From: an uncultured Acidobacteriota bacterium
Lineage (GTDB): Bacteria; Acidobacteriota; Blastocatellia; Pyrinomonadales; Pyrinomonadaceae
Direction of reading: 5' to 3'
Assembly: GCA_963763355.1 (NCBI GenBank)
Contig: CAVXOI010000004.1
Coordinates: 123,514 to 187,513, forward strand
DNA: 64,000 nucleotides
Made by a program: the position numbers and the translations under genes. The notes beneath the pieces were generated by a model. The model was given only the letters and a program-made list of their open reading frames with translations, made no database searches and had not been told where the DNA came from. Below are positions 6,995-61,187 of the stretch, in pieces. Each line of letters starts with the position of its first letter. Positions within the stretch are counted from its first letter, which is position 1.

Positions 6995-7084
6995 TTAATG
7001 CTTTCTTTACGAATATTTGAAGCGGTCTCGTCAACTTGAAAAAGTATCATAAAGGAGTTTCGTTTTTCTAATCAGCGATCAACC

Positions 7085-7164
7085 GATGCGGAAGCCCGCG
7101 CGTCAGCCAGGCGGATATGCTGATGTTGAGTGTTACGCCCTTGCTAACGCGCGGGCTTCCGCAT
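7085..7164. repeat. palindromic element, family REP-2
   Basis: Arms atgcggaagcccgcgcgtcagcc (7086-7108) and ttgctaacgcgcgggcttccgcat (7141-7164) are inverted complements. A related copy lies at 62172-62259. Confidence 0.75.
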
Positions 7165-7212
7165 TGGCGTTTGCTTATCTGAAACGCAGTACCTAAAATC
7201 GAAGTTTCGTTT

Positions 7213-7863
7213 ATGTATCCGAAAGGCAACCTGATGATCCCGGCTTCCCACGGGCAGCTTGAAGGAATACTGAAAGAGCCTGCGGGCGGGCGGCGCGGCG
7301 TCGCGCTTGTTTGCCACCCGCACCCGCTGGGCGGCGGGACAATGCACAATAAGGTGGTATTTCGGGCGGCGGCGGGCCTGGTCGACGCCGGGCTTGTTAC
7401 GCTGCGATTCAACTTTCGCGGAGTAGGAGCCTCGACCGGCGAGCACAACGAGATCGAAGGGGGGATCGAGGATGTTCGAGACGCGTTGGAATACATGGCT
7501 GCGAAATATCCGGACGAGGACCTGACTTTAGCAGGTTTTTCCTTCGGTTCGCGGACAGGACTGGCCGTGGGCAAGGATGACGACCGTGTAAAACGGCTAA
7601 TTAGTATCGGCACGCCGGTGGACAAATACCATGATTACGATTTTCTCGACGGCCTGAAAAAATCGATACTCTTCGTTCACGGCGACAGTGATGAATTCGG
7701 TTCGGTGGATAATTTGAAAAAGCTGGTCGATGAAGTTTCAAAGACAGCGGAAACCGAGCTGATCGTGCTTGAAAACTGCGGACATTTTTTTGATGAGCAT
7801 TTGAACCAGCTTCGGGATGCGGTGAAAAATTGGACCGTGATGCAACTCCGGAATAATGAATAA
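7213..7863 (+). CDS. alpha/beta hydrolase family protein
   Basis: VALVCHPHPLGGGTMHNKV, then the nucleophile elbow LAGFSFGS, then FVHGDSDEF and CGHFF. Confidence 0.7.
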   Translation: MYPKGNLMIPASHGQLEGILKEPAGGRRGVALVCHPHPLGGGTMHNKVVFRAAAGLVDAGLVTLRFNFRGVGASTGEHNEIEGGIEDVRDALEYMAAKYPDEDLTLAGFSFGSRTGLAVGKDDDRVKRLISIGTPVDKYHDYDFLDGLKKSILFVHGDSDEFGSVDNLKKLVDEVSKTAETELIVLENCGHFFDEHLNQLRDAVKNWTVMQLRNNE

Positions 7864-7923
7864 CGAATAGTGGAAAGTGAATAATGATGAAGACATTATT
7901 CATTCTTCAATATTCACTATTCA
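7864..7923. repeat. 3' hairpin with stuttered gaata-word arms
   Basis: gaatagtg...gaataatg (7865-7886) pairs with cattattc...cactattc (7895-7923). It starts right after the TAA at 7861-7863. Confidence 0.55.
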
Positions 7924-7941
7924 TTATTCCGAACAAAAAAT

Positions 7942-28263: not shown

Positions 28264-30702
28264 ACTCGCGGCCCATCACCGCAGCGGCGCTCAACGCCTT
28301 TTCGGTCTCTAATATATGATGCGTGGTTTGAATCACCGTATCCGGATTAAGTGAGATCGAATTGATCCCGCGCTCGACCAGAAACTCGCGCAAATTCCGG
28401 ATAATCCGACGGCGCCTGCCCGCAGATTCCGATTTTCTTCCCGTTTCGTTTCGCGGCATCGATCGCCATCGCGACCATTTTTTCGACCGCTCCGTTCCGC
28501 TCGTCGAACAGATGGGCGACCATCTCGGAATCGCGATCAAGCCCCAGGGCAAGCTGCGTCAGATCGTTCGAACCGATCGAATAGCCATCGAATACCTCAA
28601 GGAACTCATCCGCGAAAACCACGTTCGCCGGCAGCTCGCACATCGCGTAGATCTCAAGGTCGTTTTCGCCCTGCACAAGTCCGAACTCGCGCCATCAGCG
28701 CGATCGACCTTTTCGCCTTCTTCGACCGTACGGCAGAAAGGGATCATCGGCTTTCACGTTCGTCAGGCCCATGTCTTCGCGGACGCGTGACCATAGCCAG
28801 ACATTCCAGCCTGAAATCCGGCTTTGTACCGGTCGTCGTAATAGCGGGACGCACCGCGAAAACCGATCATCGGATTTTCCTCGATCGGCTCGAACTCCTT
28901 TCCGCCGATAAGCATCGCGTATTCGTTCGATTTGAAATCCGACATTCTGACGATCACCGGCTTCGGATAAAACGCCGCGGCGATACGGCCGATACCTTCC
29001 GGCAAGCGAGCGGACAAAGAATTCCTTCGGGTCTTCTTCGAGAATTCGTCCGGCGATCACATCGATATCGGCCTGCTTTCTCAGATTCGGATAATTGACC
29101 AGCGCCATCGGGTGAATGCCGATGTGGTTGTTGATGATGAACTCAAGCCGGGCAAGCCCGACGCCGTCGTTCGGCAGCCGCGAAACGGCGAACGCGTGGT
29201 CCGGGTCGCCGACGTTCATCATGACCTGTGTTTCGGGGCGTTCGTTGTCTGTTATCTCGTGCTTTTTCGACCTTGAAATCGACCTTGCCGTAATAAACGT
29301 TTCCGCCGCTCGCCTTCGGCGCACGAAACCGTTACTTCCGTGCCGGTCCTGATCGCCTCGGTCGCGTTGCCGGTGCCGACGATGCACGGAATGCCCAAGT
29401 TCGCGGCTGATGATCGCGCTGTGACATGTCCGCCCGCCGCGTTCGGTGACGATCGCGGAGGCGCGTTTCATGATCGGTTCCCACGCCGGATCGGTCATCG
29501 TCGTGACAAGGATCTCGCCTTCCTTAAAGGTATTCAGCTTTGAAGGGTCAAGCATGACGTGGGCAGCACCGTTTCCGATCTTTTCGCCGACGGCGACGCC
29601 CGTCGCCAGCGGCGCTCCGTGATCGCCCGTAAGGCGATAGGTTTCGATGAAATTTGTATCCGTTTTGAGTGTGAACCGTTTCGGGCCGGGCCTGAAGGAT
29701 GAACAGCTCGCCGGTGATCCCGTCCTTTGCCCATTCGATGTCCATCGGCTGGTGCTGGCCCGCAAGATTCGAATAATGGTCCTCGATCGCGCATGCCCAT
29801 TTTGCGAGCTGCAGCACTTCAAAACCGGCAAGACAAAAACGTTTTCGCTGCGACTCGACCACATCGCGGACCTGTGTGCCGGTCCCGTCGTCGGCAAAAA
29901 CCATTTTTACTTCTTTTACGCCAAGCTTTCGCGTAACGATCGGCCGAAAACCGAGTTTGAGCGTCGGCTTAAAAACGATCCATTCGTCCGGCGTCGCCAT
30001 TCCCTGCACGACCGCTTCGCCGAGGCCCCAGGCACCGTTGATGACGACTGCCTCGCGAAAACCGCTTTCCGTATCGAGCGTGAACATCACGCCCGAACAG
30101 GCCGCGTCGGAACGCACCATCGGCTGGATACCGATCGACAGTGCAACATCGAAATGGTCGAAGCCTTTTGCGGTTCGATAAGAGATGGCCCGGTCGGTCC
30201 AGAGCGACGCAAAGCATTCGTGGCAGGCCTCGATGAGCCGCTGTTCGCCGCGGACATTCAGGATCGTATCCTGCTGTCCGGCGAACGATGCGTCGGGAAG
30301 GTCTTCGGCAGTCGCCGAGGAACGCACCGCGACCTCGAAGTTCTTTTTCCCGATACGCTCGCCCAGGCGCTTGTATCCATCGTGGATGGCGGCCTCAACC
30401 TCAGGCGGGAATGGCGTTTCGAGCATCAACGCTCTTGCCTCGCCCCCGACGCGGGCCAGCTCGTCGAGATCATTTACATCGAGGCCTTTGAGCAATTTTT
30501 GGAGCTTTTTGCGTAAGCCGTTTGTCTCAAGAAGTAGCTCGTAAGCAAAGCTGGTCGTCGAAAAACCATCTACCGCGCGGACACCCTGTGTCGTCAACTC
30601 ACGAAACAACTCACCCAGGCTGGCGCACTTGCCGCCAACGAGGGCAACGTCTTTATTGCCGACCTGGCTGAAATCTAGTACGTATGAATTTCCGTTTGTC
30701 AT
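28262..30702 (-). CDS. ppsA: phosphoenolpyruvate synthase (about 5 or more frame breaks)
   Basis: N-terminus [34 protein letters not shown]; central swivelling His region [15 protein letters not shown]; C-terminus [10 protein letters not shown] and [12 protein letters not shown]. Pieces include 29548..30927, 28695..29897, 28763..29017, 28347..28676 and 28262..28552. Confidence 0.85.
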
Positions 30703-30729
30703 TCGCCTGCCTTCTTGCGGCTGTGCCGC

Positions 30730-30872
30730 CCGATGTGCGGAAAAGCTGTGCTTTTCCGAAAGCCAACCAAGGCCCGATGCGGCTATGCCGCCGCTCTCTT
30801 GTTCAACCAACGACGGCATAGCCGCAGGAGGTTGAAGTTCGCTCGGAAAAGCGTAGCTTTTCCGCACATCGG
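30730..30872. promoter_or_regulatory. 143-nt nested palindrome upstream of ppsA containing two identical-arm 21-bp palindromes
   Basis: cggaaaagc-tgt-gcttttccg (30738-30758), cggaaaagc-gta-gcttttccg (30844-30864), inner 12-bp pair gcggctatgccg / cggcatagccgc, and outer 18-bp pair 30730-30747 / 30855-30872. Confidence 0.6.
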
Positions 30873-30988
30873 TGGCGCATAGCCCCAAAAACTCAAGAAC
30901 CGGCTTATGCTCTCGCCGCAAAGGCATTCGTCAAATATTCCGCGATACTCACTGAATTCCTCCCAATTCAAGCTGGTGTCCTTAGAGC

Positions 30989-34598: not shown

Positions 34599-34602
34599 GT
34601 TT

Positions 34603-34676
34603 GGCCCGCGAATTACGCGGATCTTCGCGAATGAAGAACGTATCTTTATTCGCGTTTGTTCGCGTAATTCGCGGGC
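34603..34676. repeat. 33-nt-arm hairpin (16 bp perfect at the base) between the zinc-ribbon gene and def
   Basis: gcccgcgaattacgcg... / ...cgcgtaattcgcgggc, with cgcgaat words repeated within each arm. Confidence 0.75.
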
Positions 34677-34684
34677 AAAATTGT

Positions 34685-53415: not shown

Positions 53416-54806
53416 CTACGCGGCCTGTCCGTTCGCTATAAGCGTTGGGTAAGCGCCGGTCCAGCAGGCGGTGCAGGACGATGTGGCGTCGATGCCGATC
53501 GCGGCCAGCATTCCTTCAAGCGAGAGATAACCGAGGCTGTCAGCTCCGATGTATTCGCAGACCTCTTTGATGTTCATCCGCGACGCGATCAGGTCCTGGC
53601 GGTGCGGGCGTGTCCACCCCGTAATAGCACGAATGTGTGGTCGGCGGACAGGAGATGCGCATATGAACTTCTTTGGCACCGGATTCGCGGACCATTTCGA
53701 CGAGCTTTTTTGAAGTCGTGCCGCGGACGATCGAATCGTCGACCAGCACGACACGTTGATCGCGGATAAGGTCCTTGATCGGATTAAGTTTCAGACGGAC
53801 GCCGAACGACCGGATCGACTGTGACGGCTCGATAAACGTGCGGCCGACGTAGTGATTTCGGATTATTGCCTGGCGGAAATTGATGCCCGACTGTTTCGCG
53901 AACCCGATCGCGGCGGCGACGCCCGAATCGGGAACCGGCACGACAAGGTCGCGCCTCGACCGGCTGCTCGATCGCGAGCTGCTTGCCCATTTTATGCCGT
54001 GATTCATTTACCGACCGCCCGAATATTATCGAATCGGGACGCGAAAAATAAACGTGTTCGAACGTGCAAACGGCCGCAGGTTTCTTATCGAAGGGCATTC
54101 GCGATTCGATACCGTTTTCCGTGATAACTATCATTTCGCCCGGCTCTACTTCACGGACGTATTGAGCATCGATCAGATCGAACGCACATGTTTCTGACGC
54201 GATGCAAAAGGCGTCCTTAAGTTTACCGAGGACGAGCGGGCGAAACCCGCGCGGATCGCGAACGGCTACCAGCGCATTCGGCATCAGAAACAGCAGCGAA
54301 AATGCGCCGTCGGTTTGTTTCAGCACCGTCTCGATCGCCTCGATCGCATTCGCGGCCTGGGTTCGGGCAATGCCGTGAAGGATGGTTTCGGTATCCGAGG
54401 TCGATGAGAAAATGGCGCCTTCCTTTTCAAGCTCCCGCCGGCGCGCCTTTGCAAACGGCAGGTTTCCGTTGTGACAAACAGCGATATCGCCGTGCTGGCA
54501 GGTGACCGAAAAAGGCTGCACTTCCTTTATCGTGTTGTGGCCGGTCGTCGAATATCGCGTGTGCCCGATCGCGCTCGAGCCCCTCAATTTGCGAAGAACA
54601 TCTTCATTCAGCACATCCGCGACCAAGCCCTGCGAGCGAAACTGGTGAAGATCGCCGCCGTCGCTTGAAACGATACCGCAAGCTTCCTGCCCCCGGTGCT
54701 GGAGTGCAAAAAGCCCTAACTGCGTCAGCGTCGAAGCCTCGGCATGTCCGAAAATGCCGAAAATACCGCATTCTTCCTTAAATTTGTCCAAAACCACATC
54801 CATCAT
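53416..54806 (-). CDS. purF: amidophosphoribosyltransferase (2 or more frame breaks)
   Basis: [21 protein letters not shown] (N-terminal Cys), [31 protein letters not shown], and tail [10 protein letters not shown]. Pieces 53784..54839, 53540..54007 and 53416..53754. Confidence 0.85.
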
Positions 54807-54911: not shown

Positions 54912-55547
54912 TCAAAGTTTGCGTTCTATTTCACGTGCCTGCTCCAGATCTTGTTCGGTATTGATGTTTGCAAAATAATTTACCGGCGGCGCGGTCAAGG
55001 ATTTGTACTCGTCGGGTTTGACTATAAGGGGATGAAGTTGCTCCACGACCTCGTGCATAGGCGGGGAGACGCGAGGGCGGTGGATTATCTCATCCACGAC
55101 AGCTTTCACCTTTTTGACGTCATAAAAGGCACAAAGCGGCTGAAGGCGGCCATCGGGCTGCTCGGGGACGATCGCGCCAAAGCTTTCGTATTCACCATTG
55201 GTGTAACGAGATAGATTGGTTATCAGATCCCGCGTTACAAAGGGAAGATCGCAAGCGACCAGAAAGACCCAATCGGCGGAAGCGTGTGTCAAGGCGGTGT
55301 ACAGCCCGCCAAGCGGGCCGCGGCCTTCGATAACGTCGAAGACGAACAGGGCATCGAGCCTTGCGGCCTCGATGGCGAACTGGACCTCATTTCCGGTCAC
55401 GAAATAGATCTTCGACGCGATCTCGGAATCGCGAACTGTTTGGAGTGCACGTTCAGCGAGAGTCTTGCCGCCGATCCGTTCGAATGCCTTGTCGCGTCCG
55501 AGCCGGCTCGAACGCCCGCCGACCAGAATAAAAGCTTCGATGTTCAT
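54912..55547 (-). CDS. mobA: molybdenum cofactor guanylyltransferase
   Basis: MNIEAFILVGGRSSRLGRDK, GPLGGLYTAL and LVACDLPF. Its ATG overlaps the stop of the upstream oxidoreductase (ATGA, 55544-55547). Confidence 0.85.
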   Translation of the reverse strand: MNIEAFILVGGRSSRLGRDKAFERIGGKTLAERALQTVRDSEIASKIYFVTGNEVQFAIEAARLDALFVFDVIEGRGPLGGLYTALTHASADWVFLVACDLPFVTRDLITNLSRYTNGEYESFGAIVPEQPDGRLQPLCAFYDVKKVKAVVDEIIHRPRVSPPMHEVVEQLHPLIVKPDEYKSLTAPPVNYFANINTEQDLEQAREIERKL

Positions 55548-58011
55548 GGGGCATACTTGCTGCTCGTGTTTCCGGCTGTTGGTTTGACAGAGACGATCAC
55601 ACATTTTGACGTCGGCGTGTTGCTGCGGCGGGCGATACTGCCAAGGGGAACAAGCGGGTTTGCCTCGGGGAAATATGTTGCGCAACAGTCGAGCGGGATG
55701 TCGTAAGGTACAACAGTAAAAGCCTTTACCTGACGTTCGCCGTCATCGAAATGGCTTGTAATATCCACCGGCTGGCCCACCTCAAGACCGCGATCAGTAA
55801 TGTCCTTTTTGTTCATAAAGATCACCCGTCGGCTGCCGTCGATCCCGCGGTAACGGTCGCGGTTATCGTAAATGGTCGTATTAAATTGCCCGTGCGAGCG
55901 TATGGTCGTCATCAAAAGCCTGCCAGGTTCGAGGCGGATGGTTTCGAGCGGAGCCGGGCGGAACAGAGCTTTGCCGGAGGGTGTTTTGAAGATGCCCTCG
56001 CGTCGGCGGGTTTGGCATATAGAAGCCGCCATCCGTGCGGATGCGTTCGTTGTAGTTCTCGCATCCGGGCACGACCCGCGATATAGCGTCGCGAATGTTA
56101 TCGTAATCGGCTGCCATTGCGTCCCAGTGGACGGTGGTTCGCGTCCCAAGCGTCGCCTTAGCCAGCTGAGCGACGATCCACGGCTCGCTGCGAAGATGCT
56201 CGGACGCGGGTTCAAAGACGCCGCGTGAAGATTGAACACTGAGCATTGTGCTTTCGGTCGAGACGAATTGGTCGACAAGCATACGCCCTCCGGGCACACT
56301 GCCTAGCGGATGTTTTTCCACCTTCGCAGGCGGAAACCTGAGTAGTAGCGAGGGTGCGCCATGTGGAACATCATCCAACTTGCGCACACTCCCTACCGGT
56401 CGTGTTTCCGCCTGTGGTTGTCGGTCAATTTCGGTACGGCCGAGGCATGGGAGGATAATCGAAACTCTTCCGGGCGTTACCGCCGTCCGGTTCAGTTTAG
56501 TCAGAACGTTTACTGTCAGGGCGCAATTACGGACCGCAGTTTCAACAACGTTGGTGTCTGGAGACGCTGCGACGAAGTTGCCGCCCATGGCGAGGAACAC
56601 CTTCAGACGGCCGTCTCGCATCGCCGCGATGCTCTCGACCGTGTTGTACCCGTCCTTTTCCGGGGCCGTGAATCCAAATTCCCTTTCAAGATTTTCGCGA
56701 AAAACCGGATTCATTTTCTCCCAAATACCCATAGTCCGGTCGCCCTGCACATTCGAATGTCCGCGGACCGGGCACAACCCAGCGCCGGGATGGCCGATCG
56801 CGCCGCGTAGCAGATGCAGGTTAACTATGTCCTGAATGGTCGCGACCGCGTCCGTGTGCTGCGTAACGCCCATTGCCCAGCAGGTGACGAATTTGTCGGC
56901 AGACATTATCATCTCGGCCGCTTTCGAGATCTGTTCGTGTGTAAGACCTGAGGACTCGCGGATGTCGTCCCACGGTGTAGCGTCAAGCGTTTTAACCAGA
57001 TCTTCGTAACCTTCCGTCTTCGCCTGAATGAAGTCGTGATCGAAAACAGTGCCGGGCTTTTCACGCTCGCGTTCGAGCATTGTTTTCATCAGACCCTTCA
57101 ACACAGCCATATCCCCGCCGATCCGGAGCGGAAGGTGAAGGTCTGCAAGCTTCACCGGCTTTCCACCGATCAGCGAGAACGGATTGCCGTGCTGCGGGTT
57201 AGGGTCCTTGAAATTCATCAATCCGGCTTCCGGCAACGGGTTGATGGCGATCATCTTCGCTCCATTCTTTTTTGCGGCAGCCAGCGACGTCATCATCCGC
57301 GGAGCATTTGTTCCCGGGTTCTGGCCGATGACGATGATCAGATCGGTGTTCTCGAGGTCTTCCATCCGCACGGTCGCTTTGCCGAGACCGATAGACTCGG
57401 TCAACGCGACGCTCGTCGATTCATGACACATATTCGAGCAATCGGGCAAATTGTTCGTGCCGAATTGGCGGACGAAAAGCTGGTAGAGAAATGCCGCTTC
57501 GTTCGAGGTGCGTCCTGAGGTGTAAAAGACCGCCTCATCGGGCGAGGCGAGCGAGTTTAGTTTGCCGCCGATCGTTTCGAAAGCATTTTCCCACGATATC
57601 GGCTCATAATGCCGGCTGCCCTCGCGCATGATCAAAGGCTCGGTCAGTCGGCCCTGGTCGTTCAGCCATTGATCGCTTTGCCGGGCCAGTTCGTCTATCG
57701 AATACTTCGCGAAAAATTCGGCGGCCGATGCGTTTCGTCGTCGCCTCGTCCGCCATCGCCTTGGCACCGTTCTCGCAAAATTCGGCAAACGTCCGGTGGC
57801 TTTCCGGGTCGGGCCATGCGCACGACGGGCAATCGAACCCGCCCGCCTGGTTGATCTTCAGCATCCCGCGGGTCCCGCGCACGACGCCCATCTTTCCGAA
57901 AACATTCCGCGCCGTGCTGATGGCCGCGTCGAGGCCTGCCGCGGTTTCTTCAGGTTTCGAGATCTCGAGTTTTTCTTTTTCTTCAGACACGGAAGTTTCG
58001 ATAGACTTCAT
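55544..58011 (-). CDS. molybdopterin (bis-MGD) oxidoreductase, FdhF/YdeP-like alpha subunit; 2 frame breaks plus a REP insertion
   Basis: GGFDCPSCAWPDP, YTSGRTSNEAAFLYQLFVRQFGTNNLPDCSNMCHESTS, VIGQNPGTNAPRM, GHSNVQGDRTMG, and C-terminus GQFNTTIY...ATYFPEANPLV. Pieces 57604..58053, 55881..57788 and 55544..56299. Confidence 0.8.
56292..56412. repeat. REP-1 cluster inside the oxidoreductase CDS: 84-nt inverted doublet (56329-56412) plus a degenerate third copy (56292-56322)
   Basis: ggcggaaacctgagtagtagcgagggtgcgc ... gcgcacactccctaccggtcgtgtttccgcc. It has the same length and about 90 percent arm identity to the intergenic doublet at 59001-59084. Confidence 0.8.
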
Positions 58012-58015
58012 TCGG

Positions 58016-58106
58016 AATAACTGATAGCTGGTAGCTGAAAACTGATAATTCAACCCAACTTTGATTGCTTTAATTATCAGTTATCAGCTATCAGTTTTCA
58101 GCTATT
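58016..58106. repeat. ctgataa-word hairpin between fdhD and the oxidoreductase gene
   Basis: aataactgatagctggtagctgaaaactgataatt / aattatcagttatcagctatcagttttcagctatt, about 21 bp paired with 2 mismatches. It shares a 20-mer with 12645-12664. Confidence 0.75.
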
Positions 58107-58980
58107 CCCGATCGGGCTCTGACTCGCTGGCCGCAATAAATATTAAACCTCTCTTCCCTGACAAACCCGATCAGCGTCATACCGAACTCGCGTGCCAATT
58201 CGACCGCCAGGCTGGACGGCGCTCCGACCGCAGCCAGTATCGGAATGCCCGCCATCAGCGCTTTTTGCACGAGTTCGAAACTGGCGCGGCCGCTGACCAG
58301 CAAAATGCTGTCGCTGAGCGGCAGTCCGTTCGCCAGGAATTTTGAACCGATCACTTTGTCGAGAGCGTTATGACGACCAACATCTTCGCGGACGATATCC
58401 AGCGTGCCGTCCAGGTGGAACAAGGCCGAGGCATGAAGGCCGCCGGTTCTGTCGAAAGTTTCCTGTTCACGGCGCAGCGCGTCCGGCAAACGGTTTATGA
58501 ATTCCGGATCGATCAACGGCAGGTCGGAAACCGGCAGCTATTCGCGCCGGTTTTCAAAGCTTCGATCGAGCTTTTGCCGCAAACGCCGCAGCTTGACGAT
58601 GTATAGAAATGGCGTTCAAGACGTTTGAAATCGATGTCCACCCCGTCTTTCAGATCAACCCGGATCGTGTTTGAGTTGAGCGCCCCGGCCCGATCAAGCG
58701 TGCCTGAGCCCTTGCCGATCTTCAGCCCGCAGTGGCGGATCTGTTTGATCTGATCGGGCGATTTGATTATTCCTTCCGTGAAAAGAAATCCGGCGGCAAG
58801 GTCGGCATCCTCGCCGGGTGTCCGCATCGTGATCGAGATCGCTTTGTGCGTTCCGTCGGGAAATCCAAGGCGTATCTCAAGCGGCTCTTCGACCGCGAGC
58901 ACGTCGGCGAGGTCCCGTTCATCCGAGCCCGACTCGACACGCCGAACGGTGATTTCGAAGATCGCGGATGCCGGTTTCAC
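58091..58980 (-). CDS. fdhD: formate dehydrogenase accessory sulfurtransferase (one frame break near 58515-58540)
   Basis: LAVEEPLEIRL, MRTPGEDADLAAGFLFTEGII, SSSCGVCGK, GGLHASALF, EDVGRHNALDKVIG and VSGRASFELVQKA. Pieces 58513..58980 and 58091..58516. Confidence 0.85.
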
Positions 58981-59000
58981 AGTTCAAGTTTAGCAGAACA

Positions 59001-59084
59001 GGCGGAAACCCGAGCTGTAGCGAGGGTGCGCGACGTTGAATGGCAGCCGCATTGCGCACCCTCCCTACCGGTCGGGTTTCCGCC
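59001..59084. repeat. REP-1 inverted doublet (REPIN), intergenic
   Basis: ggcggaaacccgagctgtagcgagggtgcgc (59001-59031) / gcgcaccctccctaccggtcgggtttccgcc (59054-59084). Confidence 0.85.
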
Positions 59085-59110
59085 TTTTGCTTTAGCAAGG
59101 AGGCAGTACC

Positions 59111-59174
59111 GCAGAGACGCGGAGACGCAGAGGAAGCGTGGTCCGAGCTGTCCTCTGCATCTCCGCGTCTCTGC
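59111..59174. repeat. 23-bp hairpin (22/23) gcagagacgcggagacgcagagg / cctctgcatctccgcgtctctgc
   Basis: Read directly. It lies immediately downstream of the fumarylacetoacetase stop. Confidence 0.8.
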
Positions 59175-59181
59175 GTTGAAA

Positions 59182-60523
59182 TCAGCCGGCCGGGAGGATA
59201 CGGCCGCGGCATTCGCCGAAGCCGATGCGGCGGAAGCCTTCGCGTTCGCAGTAGCCTTTCATGATGATCTCGTCGCCGTCTTCGAGGAAGCGGCGTGTTT
59301 CGCCCGATGGCAGTTCGATCGGCTCGGTGCCACGCCAGGTCAGCTCCAGCATGCAGCCGCGTTCGGTCTTTTCCTTGCCGCTGACCGTGCCGGTGGCCAT
59401 CAGGTCGCCGGTCTGCAGGTTGCAGCCGTTCGAGGCGTGGTGCGTGAGCATCTGGCCGATGGTCCAGTAGAGGTCTTTCGTGTTCGAGCGGCGAAGGCGA
59501 TGCGGTTCGATGTTTTCGTTCCGCATCTTTTCGGTCTGGATATAAACCTCAAGATTGATATCGAGCCCGCCGAATTTTTGGTTCTGCTCGTCGCTCAGAT
59601 AATCAAGCGGCTGCGGATCGTCCGGATCGCGTTCGAACGCCTTTGTCCTGAACGGAGCAAGCGCCTCCATCGTCACAACGAACGGCGAGATCGTCGTCGC
59701 AAAATTCTTTGCGAGAAACGGCCCGAGCGGCTGGTACTCCCACGCCTGTATGTCGCGTGCCGACCAGTCGTTCACAAGGCACAGGCCGAAGATATGCTCC
59801 TCGGCCTCGCCGATCGGGATCGACTGTTCCGAGCTCATTTCCCTGCCCGACAAAAAACCCGAGCTCCATCTCGTAATCGAGATTCTTCGCACGGGATAAA
59901 AACCGGCGGCTTCTCCGCATCGCTCCGGTTCTGCCCATTCGGCCGTTTGATATCGGTCCCGCTTATCACAATACTCGAAGCCCGCCCGTGATACCCGATC
60001 GGCACATATTTGTAATTCGGCAGCAGCGGATTGTCCGGCCGGAACATCGAGCCGACATTCGTGGCGTGGAAGATGGAGCAGTAGAAGTCGGTGTAGTCGC
60101 CGATGTTGAACGGGCTATGAGAATTGCAACATCAGTCGAGTCGTAAAGGAACGCTTCTGAGTTCGACTGCCTCGGCCTTGCGAATCACCTGACAAGTCAG
60201 CTCAGAGAGCCTTTGTCTCGAACTTCGAACGAAACATCCTCGGTCCGACATACCGTACGTCAACATCCAGTCAGACGGTGTCCTGCTAATACGTGTTCAG
60301 GATATGAATCTCGAAATGAAATCCAGCTGCATTCGTCAGCAACTAGACATCGAGTACCCTGATCACCAATTCTGACACCGATGCTCCGTATGATCGTGCA
60401 ATCTCGGATCTTCGAAAACACAAAACGGCAGATTCTGTATCGGAAAATCCGTATTCGGGTCGTTGGCGGATTCGACCCAGCTTTTGAGGTAGGGTCGTGG
60501 GTTTCGTTGATCTCGTAGGTCAT
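59182..60523 (-). pseudogene. fumarylacetoacetase (FAH); C-terminal two thirds need 1-2 frame changes, N-terminal ~420 nt needs 5 or more and carries stops
   Basis: SWVESANDPNTDFPIQNLPFCVF, IGVRIGDQ / [78 protein letters not shown], and tail GFGECRGRILPA. Confidence 0.8.
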
Positions 60524-61117
60524 ATTCGACTGTCGGGTCGATAAAGGCAGAAACACGACCGGTAGGGAGTGTGCCCCGTAGCATTCGGCCTATTTAGAAC
60601 TTCGGTAGATCTATCTCCTTGTCCGTTCACGGTGTAATCAACGGCGGCCTCCACACTGATGTGGTTTCCATAAATATCTTGTGCTGCCTCCACGCGACCA
60701 GATCGCAAGCTCTTTCGCCACTAAACCCGCTTCGCGAAGTTCCCGCGTCGCATTCGCTTTAAAGGCATTCATTATCGAGGCGGGTGTCGAAATCGCGGAA
60801 ACGACAACGTGGACATGGTTGGTTCTCACATTGATCGCCAACAGCCTGTAACCGCGGATTCTGCAGACTTCACGAATCGCGGATTCACACAGCCGCTCGC
60901 TGGCGGCCATTCAGTAACACCGGCTCCGAATCCATATTCCGTTGCCATCTTTACCGAAAAAACGGGATCAAGTGACGATTCGTTCGGCGCCGTAGATATT
61001 CTGCCCGTGTCGGTCGACCGAACCTCTCTGATCGCCATGAAGCCAAGTACCGTGCGTTCTGAACGTGATAAAGTATGCAAGCGGATATTCGTTGTCGTCC
61101 CATTCGTTGTTAGACAT
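60520..61117 (-). mobile_element. REP-associated tyrosine transposase (RAYT; IS200/IS605 Y1 HUH family), 3 or more frame breaks
   Basis: MSNNEWDDNEYPLAYFITFRTHGTWLHGDQRGSVDRHGQNIYGA / PNESSLDPVFSVKMATEYGF / SERLCESAIREVCRIRGYRLLAINVRTNHVHVVVSA...WSRGGSTRYLWKP / VEAAVDYTVNGQGD, read from successive frames. Confidence 0.75.
60546..60576. repeat. REP-1 copy flanking the RAYT (inverted orientation)
   Basis: ggcagaaacacgaccggtagggagtgtgccc. Confidence 0.85.
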
Positions 61118-61131
61118 CTTGTTTTGTTGCA

Positions 61132-61162
61132 GGGCACACTCGCTACCGGTCGTGTTTCTGCC
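61132..61162. repeat. REP-1 copy flanking the RAYT (direct orientation)
   Basis: gggcacactcgctaccggtcgtgtttctgcc, 15 nt upstream of the RAYT ATG. Confidence 0.85.
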
Positions 61163-61187
61163 TGTGTGGGCTACGACCGCCTGCTGG

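Follow-up and report, generated by a model that had tools for sequence, protein, structure and literature searches.

How does a palindromic repeat come to lie open and in frame inside the coding sequence of an enzyme, and can the enzyme accommodate it? This question is raised by a stretch of 64,000 nucleotides (nt), here called the window, from contig CAVXOI010000004.1 of an uncultured acidobacterium of the Pyrinomonadaceae (assembly GCA_963763355.1, positions 123,514 to 187,513). In it, a molybdopterin oxidoreductase gene of the FdhF/YdeP family (here ydeP) contains an inverted doublet of a repetitive extragenic palindromic (REP) sequence, an arrangement known as a REPIN (REP doublet forming hairpins). 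A first-pass annotation made from the letters alone had described the doublet and left three readings side by side: a tolerated surface-loop insertion, a very recent inactivation, or an assembly chimera. Of the three, the tolerated loop insertion is the best supported, and the element is probably an in-frame REPIN of a Pyrinomonadaceae repeat family that was inserted into, and tolerated in, a loop of YdeP.

The loop lies between the conserved blocks LPCLGRxEIDR and EQFVSTESTML. Homologues of ydeP number thousands, with the best full-length ones 77-83% identical, and the state of the loop was classified in an alignment of the 120 best. The site is empty in 89 of them, which have four residues (QASG or similar) at this place. 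A-type inserts, containing AETRPVGSV, occur in 7/120 including the window protein, and the other six carry a single repeat arm. B-type inserts (S[AG]DT[PL]VR ... DADKSVRAP), which derive from an unrelated palindromic doublet, account for 20 proteins, and the remaining four have other inserts. The search for homologues carrying the same ~40 residues, proposed by the first-pass annotation as the test of its insertion claim, returned none among the 120. An ancestral origin of these residues was rejected on the basis of the QASG-type loops that prevail in the family. At the DNA level, where the best fetched loci are 81-85% identical to the window, the empty site reads GACCGG CAGGCGAGCGGC GAGCAG (locus L121), and one A arm occupies the ydeP loop in L001, L122 and L123. 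At the same codon position, loci L124 (10001-12406) and L125 (10001-12343) contain an inverted doublet from an unrelated family, whose arms GGAGCGCGGACACTCYTGTCCGCAT each include a GCGGAC/GTCCGC stem; this family B motif (GCGGACA....TGTCCGC) was not found in the window.

The closest full-length relative, L001, lacks the doublet and is exactly 90 nt shorter than the window, and the doublet together with a 4-nt joint makes 90 nt, or 30 codons. The element thus adds 30 residues relative to the closest relative P0002, and 45 residues relative to empty-site orthologues (210 nt versus 75 nt from LPCLGR to STESTM). Because of the loop states of the homologues and the exact 90-nt excess over L001, the 86-nt doublet plus 4 nt is, as judged from the aligned sequences, a lineage-specific addition in a hypervariable loop. 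The third, degenerate copy that had been reported beside the doublet is confirmed as a repeat, but it belongs to a separate event, since it is the orthologue of an older arm present in relatives. It matches the family consensus at 26/32 positions (by eye), and positions 56294-56323 form a direct repeat of 56384-56413 with 80% identity at a spacing of 90 nt. It differs from the L001 arm at 6/31 positions (by eye), which equals the divergence of the gene as a whole, and the flank downstream of it is the same as in L001; this is why we regard it as the orthologue of the older single arm. Given that synonymous divergence (dS) between the window lineage and L001 is ~1, the insertion of the doublet is not necessarily recent.

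The structure of the inserted unit was compared with that of an intergenic unit at 59000-59085. Around the ydeP doublet, an inverted repeat runs from 56327-56367 to 56374-56414, with 41-nt arms that are 76% complementary and 6 nt apart, centred on 56370. Folded as single-stranded DNA, the 86-nt doublet reaches −24.5 kcal/mol (z = −5.4 against shuffled sequences) and the intergenic unit −35.6 kcal/mol (z = −8.7). In the same orientation the two units are identical at 71/87 positions, and their arms at 29/32 and 30/32, in agreement with the arm identity of about 90% first reported. L001 carries the orthologous arm of the intergenic REPIN with an identical 16-nt flank. With at most two mismatches allowed, the window contains the 14-mer core of the arms eight times, whereas 0.93 occurrences would be expected by chance and 100 shuffles always gave fewer than eight; the inventory of the window is six arms at three loci plus two decayed arms. 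With its inverted REP units, short spacer and the possibility of one long hairpin, the ydeP element is a genuine REPIN made of two inverted REP stem-loop units. A miniature inverted-repeat transposable element has inverted arms as well, but no direct repeat that would mark a target-site duplication abuts the ends of the doublet (..CCAC/AGGCGG...CCGCCT/GCGA.., slashes marking the ends), and comparison with Rfam gave only sub-threshold look-alikes of microRNA-like hairpins. Local fold-back duplication of the old arm was also considered as the source of the doublet and rejected: the two arms differ from each other at positions 15 and 22, like those of the 59000 doublet, and the spacers of the two doublets match at about half of their positions (both by eye), so the doublet is probably not a fold-back copy.

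To place the repeat in a wider context, one genome per species was scanned with an arm pattern of 21 specified bases, which retrieved at least 119 stretches; the counts of arms, clusters and hosts given here come from the loci fetched among the matches listed. All of these stretches are from Acidobacteriota, mostly Pyrinomonadaceae or ‘Chloracidobacterium sp.’ metagenome-assembled genomes (MAGs; about 70 by eye), and several relatives’ MAGs contribute multiple loci. The 211 arms share a 29-nt core. Their outer flanks contain no conserved motif and no target motif. Within the arms, pair 11:26 is AT in 130 and CG in 73 and pair 15:22 is CG in 148 and GC in 51, and these are the two pairs with the highest mutual information. 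The stem-loop can be written CAC-GA-CC / GGTA / GG-GA-GTG, with tandem G.A pairs. Folding of single arms by energy was no better than that of shuffled sequences (z from −0.3 to −1.1). The covarying pairs nevertheless indicate that each arm is a true REP-like hairpin and that the doublet is a REPIN. The tetranucleotide GTAG is invariant in the arms, where it occupies positions 18-21, spanning the loop and the 3′ stem, rather than the terminus.

The reading frame remains open through the element and is identical on both sides of it, as the first-pass annotation had stated, and on the coding (minus) strand the doublet translates to ..QAETRPVGSVRKLDDVPHGAPSLLLRFPP... The orthologues that bear inserts in this loop are full-length proteins of 760-806 residues with both Pfam domains. 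The window protein, repaired at its frameshifts to 821 residues, was modelled with AlphaFold2 using 40 homologues, which gave a predicted TM-score (pTM) of 0.82 and a mean predicted local distance difference test score (pLDDT) of 78.6. The modelled fold matches formate dehydrogenases and, together with the two Pfam domains, identifies the host as a member of the FdhF/YdeP family. Between more confidently modelled strands, residues 533-578 lack secondary structure and stay below a pLDDT of 50; in the model, the insert is a disordered loop. The proposal of a tolerated loop insertion is therefore supported by the hypervariability of this loop in intact orthologues and by its modelled disorder. 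We infer that YdeP would retain its enzyme activity with the insert.

In-frame copies are not confined to ydeP. Among repeat clusters examined in 8-kb stretches, 65/150 are embedded in a frame that stays open for 60 codons or more in both directions. For the 122 clusters far from stretch ends the intragenic-like share is 40% with a 100-codon threshold and 48% with a 60-codon threshold, and random placement gives 41% to 58%. The intragenic share of the repeat thus equals the random expectation, and the description “extragenic” fails for this family. The premise of the first-pass annotation that REPs are normally extragenic does not hold here, with about 40% of the copies intragenic in relatives and with intragenic REPs already published (PMC3733652). 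The host open reading frames (ORFs) fall into at least 41 families, and all 20 hosts tested are conserved genes with Pfam domains. They include aminopeptidase N, alpha-2-macroglobulin (two loci), Mfd (two loci), UvrA, UvrD, MutS2, MetH, CarA, CoaBC, GcvP, a Mur ligase (two loci; murC-like), homogentisate dioxygenase, a class II aminoacyl-tRNA synthetase (aspS-like), a beta-lactamase/NamZ fusion, an M28 peptidase, an M14 carboxypeptidase and a DNA methylase. The host ORFs in relatives are intact, and most of the contigs are short-read-like, as judged from contig names. In M1 peptidase orthologues (L083, L019, L014, L046, L068, L103), four in-frame insertion sites show presence or absence between species, and these sites also host a third repeat type, PPA[SVTN]AGG.

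The following sequence of events would account for these observations. The older arm would already have occupied the YdeP loop between ..ILPCLGRxEIDR and ..EQFVSTESTML when the 90-nt piece was added immediately upstream of it in the coding sense. The copy would have persisted because its length is divisible by three, no stop interrupts the frame used and the loop accepts extra residues. The product would be a YdeP with a disordered loop that exceeds that of the closest relatives by 30 residues and that of empty-site orthologues by 45. Mobilization would presumably proceed through single-stranded DNA, by the transposase encoded nearby.

This transposase is encoded 4 kb from the ydeP element and scores 33.7 bits against the Pfam model Y1_Tnp (cut-off 23). 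It lies within a ‘REPtron’ (60545-61163), that is, a Y1/HUH, IS200-like gene enclosed by two inverted REPs of one family, as in systems of REPs and REP-associated tyrosine transposases (RAYTs). Orthologues in the same synteny (FAA-hydrolase, fdhD, ydeP, mobA-like, purF) were found in L090 (intact, 179 residues), L122 (start) and L123, and the gene is flanked by REPs in each of these relatives; L074 has another intact homologue. The shared syntenic place suggests that the transposase gene is vertically inherited, and the Y1/HUH transposase is likely the cognate of the ydeP element. The features of the locus are collected in Table 1.

Table 1. Repeat elements and genes of the window around the ydeP REPIN, in window coordinates.
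Feature	Position	Strand	Remarks
FdhF/YdeP-family molybdopterin oxidoreductase gene	55544-58011	-	Pfam Molybdopterin and Molydop_binding; three frames
Decayed REP arm coding for the YdeP C-terminal tail	55549-55577	-	..KPTAGNTSSKYAP and stop; L001 alignment, pattern match at 2 mismatches
Degenerate single REP arm	56292-56323	-	..KVEKHPLGSVP..; positional orthologue of the P0002/L001 arm and other A-type-allele arms
4-nt joint, doublet to older arm	56324-56327	-	GCGA on the coding strand
REPIN doublet, 86 nt	56328-56413	-	two 32-nt REP arms and 22-nt spacer
Doublet arm	56328-56359	+	arm match
Doublet arm	56382-56413	-	arm match
Intergenic REPIN, same family as the ydeP doublet	59000-59085	+	between FAA-hydrolase gene and fdhD
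REP arm flanking the transposase gene	60545-60576	+	pattern/arm match
RAYT-like Y1 (HUH) transposase gene	60638-61117	-	split, at least one frameshift; motifs YFITFRTHGTWLHGD and NHVHVVV
REP arm flanking the transposase gene	61132-61163	-	inverted relative to 60545-60576
ppsA	28695-30927		split gene
purF	53419-54803		split gene
fdhD	58127-58980		split gene
FAA-hydrolase gene	59188-60524		split gene

Several observations weigh against a tolerated REPIN insertion with a cognate transposase. In this assembly ydeP is not a single intact ORF: the first-pass annotation was right that the frame is open locally, but it overlooked two 1-nt frameshifts that leave the gene in three frames. The doublet allele is known from one sighting, the window protein P0001 being a one-member cluster, and scans of metagenomes for the junction between doublet and old arm, and with a gapped pattern for any doublet at the ydeP site, both gave zero matches. 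The exposure of the loop at the surface is something that we infer from pLDDT and length variability. The transposase scores 18.6-19.9 bits against the curated NCBIfam RAYT model NF047646 (REP_Tyr_transpos), far under its cut-off of 80 and even for the intact protein of L090, which is why it is called RAYT-like here; against the IS200 model it scores 22-33 bits (cut-off 55). The frameshifts could mean that ydeP, perhaps with fdhD, is a decaying pseudogene in which the REPIN is one of several lesions and the open frame incidental. That ydeP has two +1 frameshifts and the neighbouring fdhD one points this way, and an open frame is not improbable in itself, given that only one of the six frames of an arm contains a stop in the consensus reading. 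By tblastn, ydeP falls into an N-terminal piece at 57993-57712, a middle piece with the element at 57722-55995 and a C-terminal piece at 56002-55562, and relative to the orthologous contig L001 the breaks correspond to single-base insertions near 57724 (GGC[C]GCC) and 56003 (CCG[A]CGC). The same type of 1-nt indel, mostly single-base insertions at ~1 per kb, splits purF (twice), fdhD, the FAA-hydrolase gene (at least twice), ppsA and the transposase gene, core metabolic genes included; for this reason the ydeP frameshifts are probably consensus errors of a noisy assembly, which resembles a long-read consensus of low coverage or without polishing. The three ydeP pieces contain no internal in-frame stop codons, and with a ratio of nonsynonymous to synonymous divergence (dN/dS) of 0.067 in the comparison with L001, the gene was under strong purifying selection. 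With in-frame copies also present in intact orthologues and in the 20 tested host genes, mostly in short-read-like assemblies, decay of the gene is an improbable explanation. Noise of this kind, and the fact that the doublet allele was found in no other assembly, could likewise suggest that the 90-nt insertion itself was produced by the assembly, as a chimera or through the collapse of repeat copies. The noise, however, consists of 1-nt indels and not of 90-nt blocks, and an 86-nt repeat is far shorter than typical reads. The block is a complete unit that matches the 59000-59085 unit in arm pattern and part of the spacer without being identical to it, which argues against a copy-paste of the neighbouring repeat, and it adjoins a diverged orthologous arm with normal flanks. 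An artefact is accordingly very hard to credit.

A different alternative accepts the insertion but holds that it was targeted, by the transposase or by DNA structure, or that the REP peptide or mRNA hairpin has been co-opted. The ydeP codon position is shared by the unrelated palindromic families A and B and by four other inserts, whose states are scattered over a neighbour-joining tree (minimum 25 changes, against 29.6 for shuffled labels), and the four sites of the M1 peptidases are re-used in the same manner. Intragenic single arms (L002-L120) are sense in 28 cases and antisense in 6 (p = 5e-7, with 0.4 as the expectation from open frames); they use almost only two frames (AETRPVGSV and GGNxxGxEG), even though none of the three antisense frames contains a stop. 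Arm cores remain near the consensus though the genes differ by ~20% in DNA, and the empty site CAGGCGAGCGGCGAG resembles an arm with two internal gaps (by eye). Against targeting stands the lack of a conserved motif in the outer flanks of the arms, and permissive loops alone could explain the re-use of sites. Besides repeated insertion, recombination between alleles or the weakness of the tree could produce the scattered loop states, and selection on peptide composition could produce the orientation bias. We therefore consider targeting or co-option unlikely, and tolerated insertion of a REPIN into a permissive YdeP loop remains the preferred explanation.

In-frame intragenic insertion of REPs is already known as a type of event. 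Di Nocera et al. (2013, BMC Genomics 14:522) described single and dimeric GTAG/CGTC REPs within ORFs, notably uvrA, uvrD and recBCD, where the dimeric copies encode 20-30 residues and repair genes are frequent hosts (‘REP-decorated proteins’); different REPs were found at about the same site of Xanthomonas recB, most REPs were intergenic, and tyrosine transposases flanked by REPs were termed ‘REPtrons’ (PMC3733652). The family described here resembles those REPs in its hosts uvrA, uvrD, mfd and mutS2 and in its repeat-flanked transposase, and differs from them in phylum and sequence family, in the non-terminal GTAG and in an intragenic share that is at the random level in the sampled relatives.

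REPIN-RAYT systems were reportedly also treated by Nunvar et al. in 2010. They have been described as extragenic (Bertels & Rainey 2011, PMC3116915). Like them, the present family has inverted doublets that can form a long hairpin, single arms as well, a syntenic Y1 gene flanked by REPs and copies kept at orthologous sites; unlike them, it is not extragenic, this copy lying within ydeP, and its transposase falls far below the curated RAYT model. In the arrangement of its arms, its hairpin and the repeat-flanked transposase gene, the element corresponds to a REPIN/REPtron; it departs from one in its intragenic location, its low score against the curated RAYT model and the lack of a terminal GTAG.

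Rickettsia palindromic elements (RPEs), reportedly described by Ogata et al. in 2000, are about 100-150 bp long and belong to a reduced intracellular genome. They are not known to have a dedicated transposase. RPEs lie in frame in many unrelated conserved genes, with nearly half of the copies in ORFs, and the inserts are thought to be compatible with protein fold and function (PMC10969869). The present repeat is RPE-like in that it lies in frame in conserved protein genes (20/20 tested hosts) and is missing from orthologues, as in ydeP and the M1 peptidases. Compared by description, it differs in being a 32-nt REP or 86-nt REPIN, in having a RAYT-like gene with the same arms, and in residing in free-living soil and water Acidobacteria.

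A REPIN can thus lie in frame in an enzyme gene of a free-living bacterium, insertions of this kind are routine rather than exceptional in this clade, and the usual label “extragenic” fails for this Pyrinomonadaceae family. For annotation, this means that uvrA, uvrD, mfd, metH, ydeP and other genes can contain repeat-encoded loops of 10-45 residues, and for protein evolution it provides a source of lineage-specific disordered loops. The YdeP loop hotspot, with empty, single-arm, doublet and foreign-family alleles, offers a tractable case for asking whether the choice of site is mechanistic or selective. A broader proposal would be that the Pyrinomonadaceae REPIN/RAYT-like system ignores gene boundaries, with ~40% of copies in frame in conserved genes, loops re-colonized by at least three unrelated palindromic families and arms biased to the sense orientation. 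We regard this as tentative and rather doubtful. If site- or strand-directed insertion were true, it would be a major, mechanistically directed source of variation in protein loop length and would connect a known family of transposases with ‘selfish DNA in genes’ of the RPE type.

Other repeats were observed in and around these genes. A REP arm also codes for the C-terminal tail of YdeP; this arm has decayed in the window, and L001 (3687-3718) and P0002 retain it intact, with a tail that reads ..KPTGGNTSGSECVP up to the stop codon. REP-like tails occur in 7/120 homologues by a broader pattern, and 6/120 have GGNTS[GS]SEC. At its end, the tail-coding arm (GGNTSGSECVP and stop) extends over the stop codon and into the start of the following gene. 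The spacer between fdhD and ydeP contains an AT-rich hairpin (58019-58096), where L001 has an unrelated palindrome, and a strong hairpin at 59110-59175 adjoins the intergenic REPIN, with 25-nt arms that are 96% complementary, CGCAGAGACGCGGAGACGCAGAGGA; it may act as a terminator or represent another repeat family. Further inverted repeats of the window are at 7083-7167, 7849-7931 and 34600-34680. At 30730-30872, a different palindrome (30-nt arms, 93% complementary) occupies an intergenic site at which L016 (3893-3968) has an A-type REPIN, which makes this another single site hosting different palindromes. Finally, some 50 nt of the window (56391-56441) are identical to L001 (about 2920-2970) despite the dS of ~1 (by eye); this run spans the 5′ flank (SEIDRQPQ codons, with all synonymous sites the same) and the first arm, and may have been kept alike by constraint, by gene conversion or by a recent exchange of this segment.

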